Source of the DNA: a virus
IMG/VR virus record: IMGVR_UViG_3300036781_000275
Coordinates: 9,324-73,323 of that record
Reading direction: 5' to 3' (one strand)
Length of the DNA stretch: 64,000 nucleotides
The position numbers were made by a program, and so were the translations under genes. Below the pieces are notes generated by a model that was given only the letters and a program-made list of their open reading frames with translations, was not told where the DNA came from and ran no database searches. Shown one piece after another: positions 3,346 to 64,000 of the stretch (its first letter is position 1; each line of letters begins with the position of its first letter).

Positions 3346-4977
3346 TTACGTGTTCGGCTCGATGCGTCGAATGCGAATAATAGGGACCGTGTTGATGACG
3401 GTCACGGTTGGCGTCGTATCCAATGCCAGCACCGGCGCTGAGGTGTCGAGTAGCGCGACCGTACGCGAGACGTCGAGATACTGGATCGCCGCCGGATCCG
3501 TCCGGTGCACGCGCGCCAGCGAGCGCCCGTAGCATCGCGCAAAGGCACGCGCCGTGCCGATCGAGATAAAGCCGGCGTCGCTGAGCGCGAACGCACGGGC
3601 CAGCGCACGCGCGGTGCCGGCCACTTCGATCGTGGTCCGTGCGTGCCCGGTCGCTCTGGAGAGCGCGCGCGCCGTGCCACGCACGTCGTCCGTGGTCGTG
3701 CTGCGGCCGACCGCGCGCGCCAGCGCCACCGCGTGCCCCGTGCAGCCGACGCGTGTTTCCGCTTGCCCGAAGGCTCGTGCCAGCGCACAGGCGGTGCCGC
3801 GAGCCGCGTCGACGTTCTCCGACTGTCCGAGAGCCCGGCCAAGCGCGCGCGCCATACCCTGCGCGGCGACTCCAGTGGCACCCGGCGCTTCCGCGCGGCT
3901 CAGGGCGCGGGCGGTGCCAGCCGTGGCCACCCGCGACGCCCCGTGGCCACTCAGCGCCCGGCTGAGCGCGCGCGCTATGCCGGCCGATTCGAGCCGACTG
4001 GATCCGGGTCCGCCGAGTCCGCGGGCCAGCGCGCTCGCCCGCCCCGCGCACGGGATGATCGTGGTCGTAAAGCCAAGCCCAGTCCCGCGCGCGAGCGCGC
4101 GCGCTACGCCGGTGCAAGCGACGGTCGTGCCAATGATCTCCGACGTACCAACCGCGCGGCCAAGCGCGCGCGCCGTGCCCGCGCACGCAACCGTTGTTCC
4201 CGCGATCTGCGCCTGACCGTAGGCGCGCGCGAGCGCGCGAGCGGGCGCGGCCAGCGAATACAGTACGACTTCGCCCGGCGTGAATGCTCTGGCGAGCGCC
4301 CGCGCCGTGCCGGTGCATTCGACGAATGTGCCAGCCGTCGCGACGCCATAGGCGCGGGCGAGTGCGCGCGCCGGCGCGGCATAGCCGACAAGGTTGATCC
4401 CGGTCGCGAGCGCGCGCGGTAGCGCGTGCGCAATGCCAGCCGTTGGCACCGTGGTCCCGATGAGATCGCTGAGCCCGCTTGCGCGCGAGAGCGCGCGAGC
4501 GACGCCGACGCATTCGAGCCGCGTGTCACCGGGGCCAAGCCCGCGCGCGAACGTGCGTGCCGTGCCGGTGCACGGGATGATTGTGGTCGTGAAGCTGAGC
4601 CCGGTGGCGCGTGGTAGCGTGCGCGCGAGACCGGCTGTCGCGACACGCGTCGCGCCCGGAGCGGTAACGCGACTGAGGCTGCGCGCCACGCCCGCCGTCG
4701 CGAGTCGGCTCGATCCAGCGCCGCCGAGCCCGCGCGTCAACGCTCGCGCTTTCCCGGCGCATGCTACGATGTCGCTGCCGCCGGCCGCCGTCGCCACACC
4801 GAATGCGCGCGGCAACGCCCTCGCCGGAGCTGCGTAGCCGACAAGGTTGACACTGAGCGCGAGTGCAACCGCCAACGCGCGCGCTTTGCCATTGCATGCG
4901 ACGATGTTCGCCGGGTTGCCGACTTGGCCTTGCCCGACGTACGCGCTATTCGCGCCGACGACGATCCCGTTCGCCAT
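3346..4977 (-). CDS. repeat-rich putative virion fibre/filament protein
   Basis: More than 20 degenerate (C/A)xGxARALARAxG repeats; located between portal and gp7. Confidence 0.6.
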   Translation of the reverse strand: MANGIVVGANSAYVGQGQVGNPANIVACNGKARALAVALALSVNLVGYAAPARALPRAFGVATAAGGSDIVACAGKARALTRGLGGAGSSRLATAGVARSLSRVTAPGATRVATAGLARTLPRATGLSFTTTIIPCTGTARTFARGLGPGDTRLECVGVARALSRASGLSDLIGTTVPTAGIAHALPRALATGINLVGYAAPARALARAYGVATAGTFVECTGTARALARAFTPGEVVLYSLAAPARALARAYGQAQIAGTTVACAGTARALGRAVGTSEIIGTTVACTGVARALARGTGLGFTTTIIPCAGRASALARGLGGPGSSRLESAGIARALSRALSGHGASRVATAGTARALSRAEAPGATGVAAQGMARALGRALGQSENVDAARGTACALARAFGQAETRVGCTGHAVALARAVGRSTTTDDVRGTARALSRATGHARTTIEVAGTARALARAFALSDAGFISIGTARAFARCYGRSLARVHRTDPAAIQYLDVSRTVALLDTSAPVLALDTTPTVTVINTVPIIRIRRIEPNT

Positions 4978-11064: not shown

Positions 11065-11707
11065 CTATTTCGCGTCGCCGCTCACGCAAAACTGATCCAG
11101 CCATGCGTGTACATCCGCCAAGGTGCGTTGATCCGCGTCATTCCATCCTCGCACAACGGACACCATCTCCTCTGTGCCACCAACTTCCAGCACCGCGCCG
11201 GCGAGACAGAAGCAATCGCCTTTGTCTGGCAGCACTTTCTTGTCAGCGCCCTTGATCCAATGTTCGGGGTCAAGCAACGCTTTCGCTTTTGTTGCGATTT
11301 CGCACGTGGGTTGCGCATAAGGCTTCGGCGCGGCAATGAGACCGCCACCGTGCCAGTCGCCACCGTGCCAGTCGCCACCGCGCCAGACGCCACCGCGCCA
11401 GTCGCCACCGCGCCAGACGCCACCGCGCCAGTCGCCACCGTGCCAGTCGCCACCGCGCCAGACGCCACCGCGCCAGTCGCCACCGCGCCAGACGCCACCG
11501 CGCCAGTCGCCACCGCGCCAGACGCCACCGCGCCAGTCGCCACCGTGCCAGACGCCACCGTGCCAGACGCCACCGCGCCAGACGCCACCGTGCCAGTCGC
11601 CACCGCGCCAGACAACGCGGCCTCGCGCGTCGATCTCTATGTCGGCGTTTTCGGTAATCGCGCGCACCAGCCATGCGGGCGCGTTTGAGAGTTCGGAAAT
11701 TTTCATT
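11065..11707 (-). CDS. W[RH]GG[DV] pentapeptide-repeat protein with DUF6197-like C-terminus
   Basis: Start MKISELSNAPAW; 18 pentapeptide repeats; C-terminal CFCLAGA...WND...RT..DV. Confidence 0.65.
11343..11612. repeat. 15-bp tandem repeat, 18 copies (GCCACCGYGCCAGWC)
   Basis: Directly visible; only two variable positions per unit. Confidence 0.95.
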
Positions 11708-26485: not shown

Positions 26486-26499
26486 CTAACGGGTGTTAG
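26486..26499. promoter_or_regulatory. palindromic operator in TTGACA promoter (partial module copy 26465-26511)
   Basis: CTAACGGGTGTTAG plus CATCGGGCAGGG. Confidence 0.8.
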
Positions 26500-41386: not shown

Positions 41387-41467
41387 GCCCTGCCCGATGA
41401 GAGAAAGCTAACACCTGTTAGGTCCGTGTCAAGCCCTCACGTAAAACATTGATTCTGGCACAGTTAG
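41387..41467 (-). repeat. 81-bp promoter module copy C (palindrome 41408-41421)
   Basis: Near-identical to copy A. Confidence 0.9.
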
Positions 41468-42455: not shown

Positions 42456-42476
42456 CGTGTTCCCTCGGTGTGAAGG

Positions 42477-42549
42477 TATGCCGTGAGGGACTCGAACCCT
42501 CGACCTTCCGATTAAAAGTCGAATGCTCTACCTGTTGAGCTACCGGCGC
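42477..42549 (-). tRNA. tRNA-Lys(UUU) with imperfect acceptor stem
   Basis: GCGCCGG TA GCTC..GAGC A TTCGA CTTTTAA TCGGA ..GAGGG TTCGAGT CCCTC ACGGCAT A; two acceptor mismatches, no encoded CCA. Confidence 0.8.
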
Positions 42550-44461: not shown

Positions 44462-45400
44462 TCAGCGCGGACGTGTCACGTTGTAATACTGCGACAGCCC
44501 CTGCACGTGGTACGGCGCGATGATCCGCGCGAGTGCCCGCGTCCCGTCGACGTCGCCGAAGTTGTACGTGATGATGTCCTCGTGCTTGCCGGCCAGATAG
44601 GCCGCGTATACCTCGCTCCCGTGCATGCCCGCCTTACCGGGCAACCCGAACGCGGCAAGCCACTCGTCGAGTTTCCCGGTCGCCCGCATGTCCCAATTCG
44701 AGAGCGCCATGCGCACGTCGAAGTGCGGACAGTGCCGGTAGCGTTGAAACAACGTGCCAAGCTCGAACGGGTTCGGCAACGCCAGCGGCACGGTTAACTC
44801 GTCTGGCAATACGATGCGCTCACCCACCGGGATCTTCGCGACTAGCGCATCGCGCGTGCGCTTGATCTGCCCGCGCAGAATGTGCGAGCGCACCACGCCG
44901 AACGTGAGGTCGAATGCGCCACTGTACGTGACCACGAGCGCTGCGCCGCTGATCTGGCGCAGCATCGAGTCAACGACGCCCGTTTCCTCCTGCTCATCCT
45001 TCGCGTAGAAACACACGCGATCGCGCGCGGTCTCGTCGCGCCAAAAGGTTTCCGGGGTATCCGTGAGCACCGCACAGCTCAGAATGCGGCCCGTGCGCGC
45101 CGACAAGCCCAGTTCGCCCACGCGCTCGGCGCGCTCGACTTCGAGCTTCATCATTCGCTCAACCTGCTTCTCGGCCCACGTGGTTTTATCCGTCTCGCGC
45201 CACGCATCGATCGTGTCTTGCTTCTTGTAGCTCTTCGGTGCCGGCCGGTCCTCTTCGCTGTAGGTCTCCGCGTTGATGACGGCTGACCGCTTCTGAATCT
45301 CCTCGTCGATGCGCGCCACCTCCGCGTTGATCGGGATCGTCTCGATGTCCACGGTACAGATCGCGCCGCCGTGGTACTCGTACTGATTGTCGTACGCCAT
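44462..45400 (-). CDS. 3'-5' exonuclease (DEDD, PolB-related)
   Basis: VDIETIP, TYSGAFD, HFD, Y..GDV. Confidence 0.8.
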   Translation of the reverse strand: MAYDNQYEYHGGAICTVDIETIPINAEVARIDEEIQKRSAVINAETYSEEDRPAPKSYKKQDTIDAWRETDKTTWAEKQVERMMKLEVERAERVGELGLSARTGRILSCAVLTDTPETFWRDETARDRVCFYAKDEQEETGVVDSMLRQISGAALVVTYSGAFDLTFGVVRSHILRGQIKRTRDALVAKIPVGERIVLPDELTVPLALPNPFELGTLFQRYRHCPHFDVRMALSNWDMRATGKLDEWLAAFGLPGKAGMHGSEVYAAYLAGKHEDIITYNFGDVDGTRALARIIAPYHVQGLSQYYNVTRPR

Positions 45401-45445
45401 GTCGTGTGTACTCCGCCGCTGGAGTGAAATAGGTGAGCGCGCAAC

Positions 45446-45459
45446 CTAACAGGTGTTAG
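45446..45459. promoter_or_regulatory. palindromic operator CTAACAGGTGTTAG
   Basis: Upstream of exonuclease. Confidence 0.8.
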
Positions 45460-45477
45460 CGCTCATTCGCAAGCCGC

Positions 45478-46461
45478 TCAGGGATCGTCTTCCGCAAACG
45501 TGGGTGCCAATTCCAGATCGACCTGCTCGGTCTCTAGCGCACCAATAGCGCCCACGTTTTTCACGGCCTGTCGATAGTACGACGGTTTCAGTTCCGCGCC
45601 AACCGCGCGTCGGCCAGCGCTCACTGCGCTATAAACTTCCGAGCCAACGCCCATAAACGGCGTGAGCACCGTCTCGTTTGGATTGGACCAAAGCACAAGG
45701 CACCGATCTATCACGTCGAGCTGCAACGGATGCACGTGCTTCTCGTCTTCGGCATCACGCGCAGCGCGATATGGTAGTACGCGGCCGAGGCGAATGTCAT
45801 CCCAAAACGCTGACGCATATTGTCGCCAGATCCAATGCGAGTAGCGGTTCTCGATTTGGTTGCCGGTCCAGCCGCGATACCGTAGTAACTCAGCCGGCAT
45901 CACGCGTTCTCCCGCGTACTCCATAAGTCCCGTGGGATGCGCAATCGGAATCGTGTTCTGTCCAGAGCGCCTGAACACAAGAAGATAATCGGCCGACGCC
46001 ACCGTGCACCGCGACGAATCTTCCACGATAGACTTATGCGCAAGCGCTTTCGTCATGGTGCGATTGCGCACGGCGAGCGGTTCCTTCCAGATGTGGTAGC
46101 GCGCGACGTAGTGAAAGCCGATCTTCTCGTGGAGGCGAATGATGTCACCGGGAAAATCGGTCAGCGAATCGAGTCCAGTGTTGCCGGTTGGAACGTCCAT
46201 GCAATGCACGGCCGTCATGCGCCCCGGCAGGGTGAGGCGATGGATCTCCCTGACCACAAACTCGTAGTGGGCGAAAAACTCCTCGCGGTTGGCGCAGTTC
46301 GATAGATCGCGGTCGCTGGATGAGTAATGGTAGAGCCCAGCGAACGGCGGAGAATAAATAGACAGATGGATGCTGGAGTCTGGGAGATTCTGCATGACCT
46401 CCATACAGTCGCCAGAATAGAGCGCGTACCTATCGGTGATTACCTGTTCGGCAATAGCCAT
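45478..46461 (-). CDS. DNA amino-methyltransferase (N4-C/N6-A, beta class)
   Basis: GDC, YSPPF, KHVHPLQ, LTPFMGVGS. Confidence 0.9.
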   Translation of the reverse strand: MAIAEQVITDRYALYSGDCMEVMQNLPDSSIHLSIYSPPFAGLYHYSSSDRDLSNCANREEFFAHYEFVVREIHRLTLPGRMTAVHCMDVPTGNTGLDSLTDFPGDIIRLHEKIGFHYVARYHIWKEPLAVRNRTMTKALAHKSIVEDSSRCTVASADYLLVFRRSGQNTIPIAHPTGLMEYAGERVMPAELLRYRGWTGNQIENRYSHWIWRQYASAFWDDIRLGRVLPYRAARDAEDEKHVHPLQLDVIDRCLVLWSNPNETVLTPFMGVGSEVYSAVSAGRRAVGAELKPSYYRQAVKNVGAIGALETEQVDLELAPTFAEDDP

Positions 46462-51898: not shown

Positions 51899-52256
51899 TT
51901 GTTAACGGTCTCTCCGCACGTGCTCCAACAAAACCAGTGATCGCCGTAGTCGACCCAATTGTGATTGCACTCCGCGCTATTAGGTGGCGGCCCAATGATC
52001 ATCGCGACTGTCTTCTCCGCGCTACGCCAGCGCTCAGCGTCCACCTTGTCCGCCTCGGTCGCGTCAGACCGCGCCTCCTCGATCGCCACGATCAGCGCGT
52101 CGCGCCATTTCGGTAGCTCGCAGTCGTCGACGTGCTTGCCGCTGCGGCATTTACAGACGCGGGCGCGCAAGATCAGTCCCTCCACGAGCCCCGTACGGTC
52201 GAAGCGCCACGCCTCTCGTTGGCGTGGCGCGGCGACCGATTCCGCCGGCGTGTCGC

Positions 52257-52568
52257 TCACGAGCCGAGCGGTTCCAGTTCGCCGAGCGGGTTTACTTCGC
52301 TCTTCAGCTCGCCGCGCGCGTTTAGTTCGCCCACGCGTACCGGCCTGCCATCGGATGGCTTGTACTCGACGCTGCCATCGACCGGGTGGATGTTGAAGTT
52401 TTTCGGCGCGTCGATCAGCACGAATTTCTTGGCGTAGCTCGGCGCTTCGGCCTTGCAATTGCGCAGCGCGATCTTCGCGTCTGCGCCCTGACCCCAGCAG
52501 TTCGAGCCCATGACGAGCGCCGTGCGTCCTGCCGGCGCGGTCCAGATTGCTTTCGCTGATTTCACCAT
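52257..52568 (-). CDS. hypothetical protein
   Basis: Conserved leader at 52571-52590. Confidence 0.6.
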   Translation of the reverse strand: MVKSAKAIWTAPAGRTALVMGSNCWGQGADAKIALRNCKAEAPSYAKKFVLIDAPKNFNIHPVDGSVEYKPSDGRPVRVGELNARGELKSEVNPLGELEPLGS

Positions 52569-52618
52569 ACCGTTGTCTCCGCGTTGGAAGCGCGAGTGAA
52601 TTCTCGCATATCTCTAGC

Positions 52619-52632
52619 CTAACAGGTGTTAG
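52619..52632. promoter_or_regulatory. palindromic operator CTAACAGGTGTTAG
   Basis: Within TTGCGC-16-TAGGCT promoter. Confidence 0.8.
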
Positions 52633-52654
52633 CTCGGCGCGCAAGGGCCAGCAG

Positions 52655-53080
52655 AAAAGCCGCCCGGTGCGCGATAATCAGTCGCGTCCGGTACGGCTTT
52701 CACTTCAGGCGTTCACGGTTTCCAATATGACCGCGCATGGCCGGGCACACAAGAGAACGAGCCGCTTAGGGACGAATCCCCGCGGCTCGTTGCGCGACAG
52801 AAGCTTAGCGCTTCCTGTAAGCCGGTCTCTTGCGGCGGCCCGGATGATTTGCGATCAAGCGCGCTCCCTCGTGAGAGTTCGTGCGTCCGTGAACCTCGCA
52901 TGGTTAACGCCTCTGGCCCGAAAGCGCAACGGCCGTAGCACAACCGGGTTCAGCGCTCGCTCTTCGCTGATGGAGCCGGTGCTACGACCGTTGCAAAAGC
53001 TGACCACCTATCCTGAGCTGATCCGATGCGCTCGTCCACGCACAAGCAGGAAGAGGCCGGGGCCTTTTGTCAGTGGTCAA
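52655..53080 (-). ncRNA. candidate large structured ncRNA directly 3' of tRNA-Met
   Basis: No credible ORF; long stems at 52926-52994, 52756-52791, 52656-52700 plus long-range complementarities. Confidence 0.55.
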
Positions 53081-53081
53081 A

Positions 53082-53154
53082 GAGCAGGGACCGGACTCGA
53101 ACCGGCAACCTCCGAGTTATGAGCCCGGTGCGCTACCAATTGCGCTACCCTGCG
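53082..53154 (-). tRNA. tRNA-Met(CAU), initiator-like
   Basis: CGCAGGG..GCGC..GCGC A CCGGG CTCATAA CTCGG..GCCGG TTCGAGT CCGGT CCCTGCT; C1:U72 mismatch. Confidence 0.88.
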
Positions 53155-53201
53155 ATCGTCAATCTATGCGGCTGTCTGCTGTCTCCACCAGAGCCATTCA
53201 G

Positions 53202-55640: not shown

Positions 55641-55660
55641 CGCTCGCCCTCGAAAGAAAA

Positions 55661-55952
55661 GTGGAGCCGCGGGGAATCGAACCCCGGTCCAAAAGACCTA
55701 CTCATCACCAACTCTACAAGCATAGGCCGTTGATCGTCAGACGGCCGGCTGTTCATGCGGGGAGCGGCCTTACGGTCGCACCGTCCACCAGTTACGCAGC
55801 CATCTGGATCGGCGTAACGCGATTTCGTGCACTTCGGAACGCACACAGCGACACTTCGTTGTCTTTGGCTGTTATGGTTTGGCCCTGTTGGATCCGGGCC
55901 GCGATCGCTTGCATCGGTGCATTTCAATCTTCTGTCGAAGCCAGTCGGCCCC
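55661..55952 (-). ncRNA. ssrA: tmRNA
   Basis: 5' GGGGCCGAC..GGCTTCGAC; 3' GGACCGGGGTTCGATTCCCCGCGGCTCCAC; G3:U pair; tag ORF 55869-55792 AKDNEVSLCAFRSARNRVTPIQMAA-stop after ATAACA. Confidence 0.92.
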
Positions 55953-63734: not shown

Positions 63735-64000
63735 CAGTCGGTCCGCGTCGCGCCCTGACCGTTACGCAGCGTAGCGCGCCCGCCGGCGAGGACGTGATCG
63801 ATCGAGCGCGCGCTTGATACCGCGCCGGGCGTCGCCGCTTGATACGACGCACCATCGCGCAGCGGTTGTGTGTTGTATTCGATCCGCGCCAACCACACGT
63901 TCGCCGATGCCAAATAGGACATCACGCTCGCGCCTTCCGCGGCGCTCACGCCCTGCAAACCGCCGCTATTCGAGGCGGATGTCGGCGACGCTGCCCCACC
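63734..64000 (-). CDS. probable tape measure protein C-terminus (partial)
   Basis: Open reading toward window edge; L.RIE.NT motif; position upstream of Tal. Confidence 0.5.
   Translation of the reverse strand, partial: GGAASPTSASNSGGLQGVSAAEGASVMSYLASANVWLARIEYNTQPLRDGASYQAATPGAVSSARSIDHVLAGGRATLRNGQGATRTD

Follow-up and report, generated by a model that had tools for sequence, protein, structure and literature searches.

A structured, non-coding tRNA trailer ending in a terminator-like hairpin at a transcription-unit border of a divergent soil phage

The locus and its genes

Directly downstream of a tRNA gene in a soil phage genome lies a stretch of about 430 nt that encodes no recognisable protein and runs up to a terminator-like hairpin. 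It was studied within a window of 64,000 nucleotides, which is the whole stretch of DNA analysed here and covers bases 9324-73323 in a virus record of 73,323 bases that is classed as complete; all positions given below are those of the window. The stretch, which we call the trailer, occupies window positions 52650-53081 on the minus strand, in the 3' flank of tRNA(CAU) and between this tRNA and the terminator-like hairpin T. Nearly all genes of the phage are on one strand, and every neighbour of the trailer is on the minus strand. The features of the locus, in the order in which the minus strand is read, are the following.

53657-53202, minus strand: 151-aa ORF, the gene upstream of tRNA(CAU)
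53082-53154, minus strand: tRNA with anticodon CAT (ARAGORN; Rfam tRNA, 61.6 bits)
53000-53080, minus strand: D1, an irregular stem closed by a 9-bp helix (53080-53072 / 53008-53000), then CUUUUG
52926-52994, minus strand: D2, a 16-bp stem (one G-U pair) with a short extension and an inner hairpin of 6 bp, then GCUUUCG
52706-52920 (215 nt), minus strand: D3, nested helices (5+8+7+6+9 bp) that form a rod with two side hairpins
52653-52701, minus strand: T, the terminator-like hairpin, 18 pairs with two interruptions and a 7-nt loop, preceded by an A-run and followed by UUUUCU
52616-52644, minus strand: first copy of a promoter-like motif, TTGCGC (52644-52639), a 17-nt spacer and TAGGCT (52621-52616)
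52566-52590, minus strand: conserved 5' leader CTTCCAACGCGGAGACAACG, which contains GGAGA, with the ATG of the next gene
52257-52568, minus strand: 103-aa ORF, an ORFan and the first gene of the next unit, with a strong codon-position GC period

A preliminary description of this DNA, made from its letters only, had placed a large RNA beside a tRNA-Met gene. Both ARAGORN and Rfam agree that the trailer adjoins the 3' end of a tRNA on the minus strand, and its CAU anticodon is compatible with a methionine, an initiator or an Ile2 identity. The gene encodes no CCA, and the first acceptor pair is non-canonical (positions 1/72 are marked as non-standard by Infernal). On the minus strand the tail genes come first, followed by the lysis genes, the tmRNA, four small ORFs, tRNA(CAU), the trailer, T and the promoter-like motif. 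The genes upstream of the tRNA include a Dit tail protein (phrog_33, E 1e-9), which is preceded by a 1051-aa ORF in tape-measure position, and a weak match to an Rz-like spanin (E 4e-4), with further small ORFs between the tmRNA and the spanin match. The tRNA and the tmRNA are tightly packed between ORFs on the same strand, and no sigma-70-like site was found beside either of them. At Rfam gathering scores, the only RNA genes in the window are the tmRNA and two tRNAs; the phage also encodes tRNA-Lys(UUU).

The phage genome and its assembly

The phage has a G+C content of 63%. The two ends of the record share an exact 127-nt overlap, described as a 'terminal repeat', and a 1093-aa ORF spans both ends; the record is thus a circular assembly with no mapped genome ends. 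A contig of 72,994 nt, assembled from the one public DNA run that holds the sequence, crosses the trailer site with zero differences from the record, and is not independent support because this run may be the record's own source. The contig breaks at a 15-nt tandem repeat, around 11.4 kb in the window. Among public sequencing runs, the trailer sequence was listed for this DNA run only and for no RNA run.

In a collection of 5.8 billion proteins, the best relatives of the portal protein are 39, 39 and 35% identical to it, and its identity to the portals of isolated phages is 28-29% at most. The large terminase subunit, TerL, is 51% identical to that of the Mesyanzhinovviridae, which are siphoviruses of Xanthomonas, Stenotrophomonas, Janthinobacterium and Pseudomonas. 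Judged from such protein comparisons, the phage is a deeply divergent singleton. An equivalent junction was sought in the Janthinobacterium phage Donnerlittchen (TerL 50% identical, with a similar tRNA-Met), but its genome layout differs. One account of the Mesyanzhinovviridae (PMC11946847) gives them no fixed genome start, which suggests headful packaging in that family; for the present phage the suggestion is carried over solely by way of the 51% TerL relationship.

Non-coding status of the trailer

The G+C content by codon position is flat over 52560-53040, and both flanking genes have a strong three-base period. ORFs inside the trailer matched no Pfam or PHROG family, and the same is true of a 191-aa plus-strand ORF in the region that overlaps the tRNA. 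A small ORF starting at ATG 52902, with AGAGG 8 nt upstream, was rejected as a gene candidate: its third-position G+C content is around 0.61 by hand count, compared with 0.70-0.90 in genes of the phage, and it has no family match. The trailer is non-coding, and the long non-coding stretch of the preliminary description therefore stands.

Predicted folding of the trailer

The minimum free energy (MFE) predicted for the minus strand of 52640-53081 is -205.7 kcal/mol, compared with -176.0 +/- 6.3 for 100 dinucleotide shuffles (z -4.69), and none of the 100 shuffles folded as well. Comparison with dinucleotide-shuffled controls had been proposed in the preliminary description as a test that could refute its structured RNA, and the trailer passed it. 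When the whole 73-kb genome was divided into 663 overlapping windows of 440 nt, the trailer ranked first in GC-corrected stability, with an excess of -29.6 kcal/mol (z -3.0). Most of its helices have pair probabilities (P) above 0.9 in the fold of 432 nt, and the dense self-complementarity that had been reported is real, the principal stems being present as described. Other long inverted repeats occur elsewhere in the window. The predicted fold is made up mainly of a long hairpin, a rod bearing side hairpins, and the terminator; it has one UUCG loop, zero GNRA loops and no recognisable tertiary motifs. The term 'ornate', used earlier for this RNA, is unsupported by so simple a predicted architecture lacking GNRA loops.

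The helix of D1 begins 2 nt past the tRNA end. It is the pairing of TGACCAC with GTGGTCA noted earlier, extended here to 53000-53008 / 53072-53080 with a pair probability of 0.90; D1 as a domain beats its shuffles only weakly (z -1.55, 13/150 as good). A separate hairpin proposed at 53052-53068 (GGCCCCGGCC) had to be given up, since these bases are part of the irregular stem and form a free hairpin in neither fold. D2 has an MFE of -41.5 and a z of -4.97, with 0/150 shuffles as good. Its stem of around 16 bp with an inner hairpin agrees with the earlier reading: the arms 52926-52941 / 52979-52994 are 94% complementary (P 0.94), and the inner hairpin, 52970-52950, has a probability of 0.99.

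At its end the rod of D3 carries a pair of hairpins (52824-52795 and 52790-52757), with the UUCG loop in the second. Most helices of this domain have probabilities of 0.92-0.99 (z -2.66, 3/150 shuffles as good), long-range pairs are present, and there is no U-tract of its own. The stem noted at 52756-52791 is complementary at 10/10 positions (52756-52765 / 52782-52791), and the long-range pairing of GTTCACGG (52711-52718) with CCGTGAAC (52887-52894) is predicted with a probability of 0.98. A second long-range pairing, AGGCGTT with AACGCCT, holds in part: it forms in the fold of 442 nt, but in the fold of 432 nt it is displaced by alternative pairs. The helix of T has probabilities of 0.90-1.00 (z -2.89, 3/150 shuffles as good), and the terminal stem with a short U tract that had been recognised there was recovered at 52656-52674 / 52682-52700, with UUUUCU at 52658-52653.

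The complementary strand is also stable, with a z of -3.32 against shuffles and rank 9 among the 663 windows, and a strand difference of this size is nothing unusual in this genome (z -0.42). Strand-specific folding, considered as evidence for an RNA, was accordingly not significant and was abandoned. Because both strands fold almost equally, energy alone cannot separate RNA structure from dyad symmetry of the DNA, and a role at the RNA level is unproven over one at the DNA level. The near-equality extends to D2 (-4.97 on the minus and -4.51 on the plus strand) and to D3 and T taken together (-4.15 and -4.31), and it would suit an element that acts as DNA at the junction of late and early genes, such as an origin of replication, a site of packaging or recombination, or a group of palindromes that bind proteins. 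So would the position, for the site is non-coding and lies where transcription units meet, a place at which the ends or control regions of many linear phage genomes are found. However, there are no iterons or direct repeats beyond chance and no turn of the GC skew, and an origin is further contradicted within 52500-53200 by the lack of any DnaA-box-like site (up to one mismatch) and by a minimum 40-nt G+C content of 0.47, which leaves no AT-rich unwinding region. As for packaging, relatives of the TerL are described in PMC11946847 as circularly permuted headful packagers, and the terL gene lies 40 kb away. Two assemblies cross the site unbroken, of which one may be the record's source, and contigs cannot show ends. 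On this balance we consider a DNA-level element unlikely.

Hairpin T and the start of the next unit

In the predicted fold, T has the make-up of an intrinsic terminator, namely a GC-rich hairpin (52701-52655) directly before a U-run, and it stands at the end of a putative transcription unit. A simple consensus terminator scan listed none of the trailer hairpins, T included; we attribute the omission of T to the two interruptions in its stem.

The first promoter-like motif starts 8 nt past the UUUUCU of T. In its general form the motif runs from TTGnnn through a spacer of 17 nt, which holds the palindrome CTAAC-N4-GTTAG, to TAGnnT, and it always stands before genes; in the first copy the palindrome lies at 52632-52619. 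When one mismatch is allowed, the palindrome has 15 matches in the window, compared with 0.28 expected. Exact copies number 14 genome-wide, all in the minus-strand reading and extending from 12398 to 52632 in the window, so that the copy at 52644-52616 is the first of the 14 in the direction of transcription, with none from 52633 to the window end. Eight of the copies precede the same leader, CTTCCAACGCGGAGACAACG, together with a start codon, and this leader (up to three mismatches) has 8 matches in the window against 0.01 expected. From these features we infer that the 14-copy motif represents phage promoters with an operator-like palindrome.

The 103-aa ORF that follows the first copy found only itself at E<=0.001 in the collection of 5.8 billion proteins, in which 4 candidates were scored. 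The unit that it opens holds replication and recombination genes, including an AAA_24/Sak4-like protein and a helicase. The hairpin with UUUUCU, the motif eight bases later, and the tail, lysis, tmRNA and tRNA genes upstream together place the trailer at the border between the late unit and this next unit.

Searches for homologues

No homologue of the trailer was found in any collection searched, an outcome that we ascribe to the phage being a singleton. When the tRNA and trailer together were compared by blastn with 50,697 phage records, 309 records gave matches, without any reaching 80% coverage of the query, and the 20 matches listed all fall within query positions 1-81, which are the tRNA. 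The trailer alone, at E<=10 against the same number of records, gave matches of 23-37 nt in 3 records, with E values of 2-5.

Loci in IMG/VR and in metagenomes were reached through five flanking or marker proteins. In IMG/VR, the 151-aa ORF, a 512-aa ORF and the portal had no match, the 103-aa ORF had one weak match of 21 residues, and a 272-aa ORF (phrog_874) led to 20 loci with 28-39% identity. The 21 whole IMG/VR records obtained from the 103-aa and 272-aa loci contained only matches of 14-22 nt to the trailer, in 8 of the 21, and since neither the portal (0/21) nor a tmRNA above the cut-off (0/21) was found in them, they are not true relatives. In metagenome contigs the 272-aa ORF was found at 66 loci, with 25-74% identity in the best segment and at most about 40% over the full length. 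An nhmmer search of 95 loci with the trailer found nothing.

Pattern searches were equally negative. In the viral (IMG/VR) contigs scanned, there were no occurrences of an exact pattern for the 3' half of the tRNA, of two exact trailer probes or of a promoter-plus-leader pattern. The two probes were also absent from GTDB contigs; the promoter-plus-leader pattern had 7 single matches there, in unrelated bacteria and at chance level, and nhmmer found nothing at them. A sample of 801 proteobacterial genomes comprised 401 of one order and 400 scored genomes of the class. Eight of the 401 had short matches (20-69 nt, at scattered query positions, per-genome E 1.9e-5 to 9e-3), which nhmmer left unconfirmed at the five matched places to which it was applied, and none of the 400 had a match at E<=1e-4. 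Four further bacterial genomes had no match to the trailer, and the phage's own genome has no paralogue of it.

An orphan sequence in an orphan phage might be what remains of a lost gene or of lost tRNA genes, with T the only part still in use and the pairing a consequence of GC-rich sequence. Loss of a tRNA array is conceivable, as Bordetella phage PHB04 has a tRNA-Met followed by two tRNAs and a permuted tmRNA, and the presence of long inverted repeats at other places in the window also fits such decay. Nevertheless, no remnant resembling a tRNA or tmRNA was detected by Rfam at E<=10, nor any remnant of a protein family, and the trailer folds better than 100/100 shuffles and than every other genome window, which decay should not bring about. 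A decayed leftover is therefore quite improbable in our estimation.

Comparison with known RNA families

The preliminary description had called the RNA possibly GOLLD-like and had asked for an Infernal search of Rfam. A scan of the trailer gave no match at the gathering score, and a search of 52500-53200 with 4227 families at E<=10 gave three matches, all of which overlap the tRNA, so that even at this permissive threshold nothing fell in the trailer. Thus none of the Rfam 15 models, those for RNase P, 6S, introns, ribozymes, riboswitches, tmRNA and permuted tmRNA included, matched the trailer. The models of GOLLD (RF02032) and ROOL (RF03087) had no match at E<=10 anywhere in the phage genome, and in the case of ROOL the control genomes gave none either. 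A segment, ACCGGCUUAC, had been likened by eye and from recall to part of the RNase P core; no RNase P model matched it, and the likeness was dropped. On these model comparisons, the trailer belongs to no described RNA family.

GOLLD and ROOL are described, in PMC5737381, as large RNAs that often occur in phages or prophages and near tRNAs, with which they are possibly co-transcribed; ROOL averages around 581 nt and has six multistem junctions as well as three pseudoknots, and the function of both is treated in that literature as unknown. The trailer is like them in lying in a virus record directly next to a tRNA, but context alone defines no membership. It differs in having no match in sequence or structure and no family of homologues, in being shorter than ROOL (about 430 nt against the 581-nt average), and in its predicted fold of hairpins and one rod, which shows neither pseudoknots nor a multi-junction core. 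With context as the one point of agreement, and with all the models silent, it is extremely improbable that the trailer belongs, in diverged form, to GOLLD, ROOL or any other large RNA family so far described, and the label GOLLD-like is unsupported.

The trailer could instead represent a new and independent class of non-coding RNA in phages, a piece of about 430 nt that is cleaved off the tRNA precursor and acts in trans late in infection, possibly as a decoy or sponge for host RNases, for defence nucleases that target tRNAs, or for RNA-binding proteins. Its folding is the top-ranked structure of the genome and has a well-defined ensemble, the helix of D1 would close off its 5' end and T its 3' end, and compact phage genomes seldom retain 430 unused nucleotides. 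The same phage carries other RNA genes related to translation, the tmRNA and tRNA-Lys, and adjacency to a tRNA is shared with GOLLD and ROOL as these are presented in PMC5737381. Yet there is no homologue and hence no covariation, the fold offers no GNRA loops or recognisable tertiary motifs, its long near-perfect helices rather resemble terminators, RNase III sites or DNA palindromes, and the strand asymmetry is within the genome background. Pairing tests also failed to single out a target: 96/100 shuffled trailers paired equally well or better with the eight conserved 5' leaders, and 222/293 control segments did so with the phage tmRNA. We consider such a class doubtful, and it is slightly more doubtful that the trailer is the founding member of a helix-sealed, trans-acting class of about 430 nt that accumulates late in infection, with a possible role as a decoy of host nucleases or of defences directed at tRNAs.

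By-products of tRNA precursors can persist in the cell, as do the 3'ETS-leuZ RNA and the phage T4 RNAs, which range in length from some tens of nucleotides to about 140 nt. The 3'ETS-leuZ sponge of E. coli is reportedly a functional tRNA 3' trailer, and the stable RNAs C and D, which are said to be encoded by phage T4 within its tRNA cluster, reportedly have no known function. An RNA released from the present trailer would likewise be a by-product of tRNA processing, but those RNAs are far shorter than the putative one of about 430 nt.

A proposed 3' trailer and terminator module

The reading that we favour, tentatively and at a probability of around 0.4, is that tRNA and trailer are transcribed together at the end of the late unit, the trailer serving as a structured 3' end and terminator module. 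The observations behind it are the non-coding status of the stretch, its helices, T with its U-tract, the adjacent promoter-like motif and the late genes upstream; from them we infer transcription through the trailer, termination at T, processing and function. RNA polymerase would pass the tRNA, enter the trailer and halt at T, and D1 and D2, both of which have a short U-run behind them, might act as weaker stops ahead of T. In this way the trailer and T would keep late transcription out of the next unit, a tight stop being needed because the genome is assembled as a circle with nearly all genes on one strand.

When the 3' end of the tRNA is processed, the trailer would then come free as a by-product, an RNA of about 430 nt. 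Such release is a reasonable supposition given that the trailer lies 3' of the tRNA and ends in a terminator-like hairpin, and processing of the RNase Z/BN type is proposed because no CCA is encoded. The freed RNA should resist exonucleases, as the D1 helix would enclose its 5' end and T its 3' end. Phage T7 has RNase III processing hairpins between genes, at sites with characteristic internal loops. D2 resembles these in offering around 20 stacked base pairs, by prediction, within a putative polycistronic transcript, and this helix of the 20-bp class is a plausible RNase III site. The main job of the module would be termination, insulation and protection of the 3' end, and not catalysis or ligand binding.

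Intrinsic and tandem terminators provide a close likeness to parts of the locus: T is a GC-rich hairpin with a U-run between two transcription units, and the short U-runs after D1 and D2 recall terminators arranged in tandem. The module differs from intrinsic terminators in being around ten times longer, in the lack of a U-tract at D3 and in the silence of the consensus scan. The same features count against a terminator reading, for 430 nt far exceeds what a terminator needs, D3 alone occupies 215 nt, and the scan listed none of the hairpins. In addition, about 33 kb of the circle separate the tRNA from the nearest recognised promoter motif on its upstream side, and, with no homologue found, selection on the helices is unsupported.

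Significance

The trailer is real: it follows a tRNA at a transcription-unit boundary, is non-coding and is structured to an unusual degree. If it is only a compound terminator and protector of the 3' end, the biology is ordinary; the trailer is useful all the same for annotation of the phage, since it shows where the late unit gives way to the unit with the 14-copy motif. To our knowledge, few large tRNA-linked RNAs are known in phages. If the trailer is indeed a stable functional RNA, it would add to these a large phage RNA born of tRNA processing, and its source would be a deeply divergent soil phage whose portal has relatives only 35-39% identical.

RNA genes acting on translation

Three RNA genes of the phage act on translation: a tmRNA, tRNA(CAU) and tRNA-Lys(UUU).

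55659-55952, minus strand: phage-encoded one-piece tmRNA (Rfam, 108.1 bits)
53082-53154, minus strand: tRNA(CAU)
42475-42549, minus strand: tRNA-Lys(UUU), midway through the region that holds the replication genes

The tmRNA gene is closely flanked on both sides by ORFs of the late unit, and its tag, as predicted by ARAGORN, is unusually long (AKDNEVSLCAFRSARNRVTPIQMAA). The tRNA(CAU) gene does not encode CCA, and its first acceptor pair is non-canonical (C1 opposite U72). Initiator tRNAs have three G-C pairs in the anticodon stem, whereas the phage tRNA(CAU) has G-C, G-U and G-C at the equivalent place; it may be an initiator, an elongator tRNA-Met or a tRNA-Ile2. A counter-defence role for these RNAs is conceivable but speculative.

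In Bordetella phage PHB04, an unannotated 1.5-kb gap (about 45118-46432 of NC_047861.1) contains genes for tRNA-Met, tRNA-Asn and tRNA-Pro together with a permuted tmRNA (Rfam RF04321, 104.5 bits), none of which is annotated in the NC_047861.1 record.

Record ends and repeats

The 'direct terminal repeat' of the record is an exact 127-nt overlap between genome positions 1-127 and 73197-73323 (window 63874-64000), and is spanned by a 1093-aa ORF. The overlap arises from the assembly of a circular contig and does not represent a repeat mapped on the physical genome. Within the window, repeats occur at the following positions.

3583-4909: GC-rich family of degenerate repeats, each about 39 nt long, within a 543-aa ORF (3346-4977) of the structural region
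11298-11671: tandem array of a 15-nt unit, with at least 17 copies in register
52196-52238: 18-nt inverted repeat with a 7-nt loop, 89% complementary

Many imperfect palindromes occur in the GC-rich family, where the GC content reaches 0.74, and the Logan contig of the phage (72,994 nt) breaks at the tandem array. The inverted repeat, just 3' of the stop codon of the 103-aa ORF, may be a further intergenic hairpin signal.

A promoter-like motif

A promoter-like motif occurs at 14 sites across 12398-52632, all 14 copies being oriented alike, for example:

52616-52644
41408-41421
26486-26499

It consists of TTGnnn, an N17 stretch holding the palindrome CTAAC-N4-GTTAG, and TAGnnT. With up to one mismatch allowed, the palindrome has 15 matches in the 64-kb window, against 0.28 expected. 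Eight of the 14 copies are followed by a conserved leader, CTTCCAACGCGGAGACAACG, and three (12375, 26833 and 41385) have an 89-nt module in common. The motif probably marks a regulon under the control of a phage DNA-binding protein.
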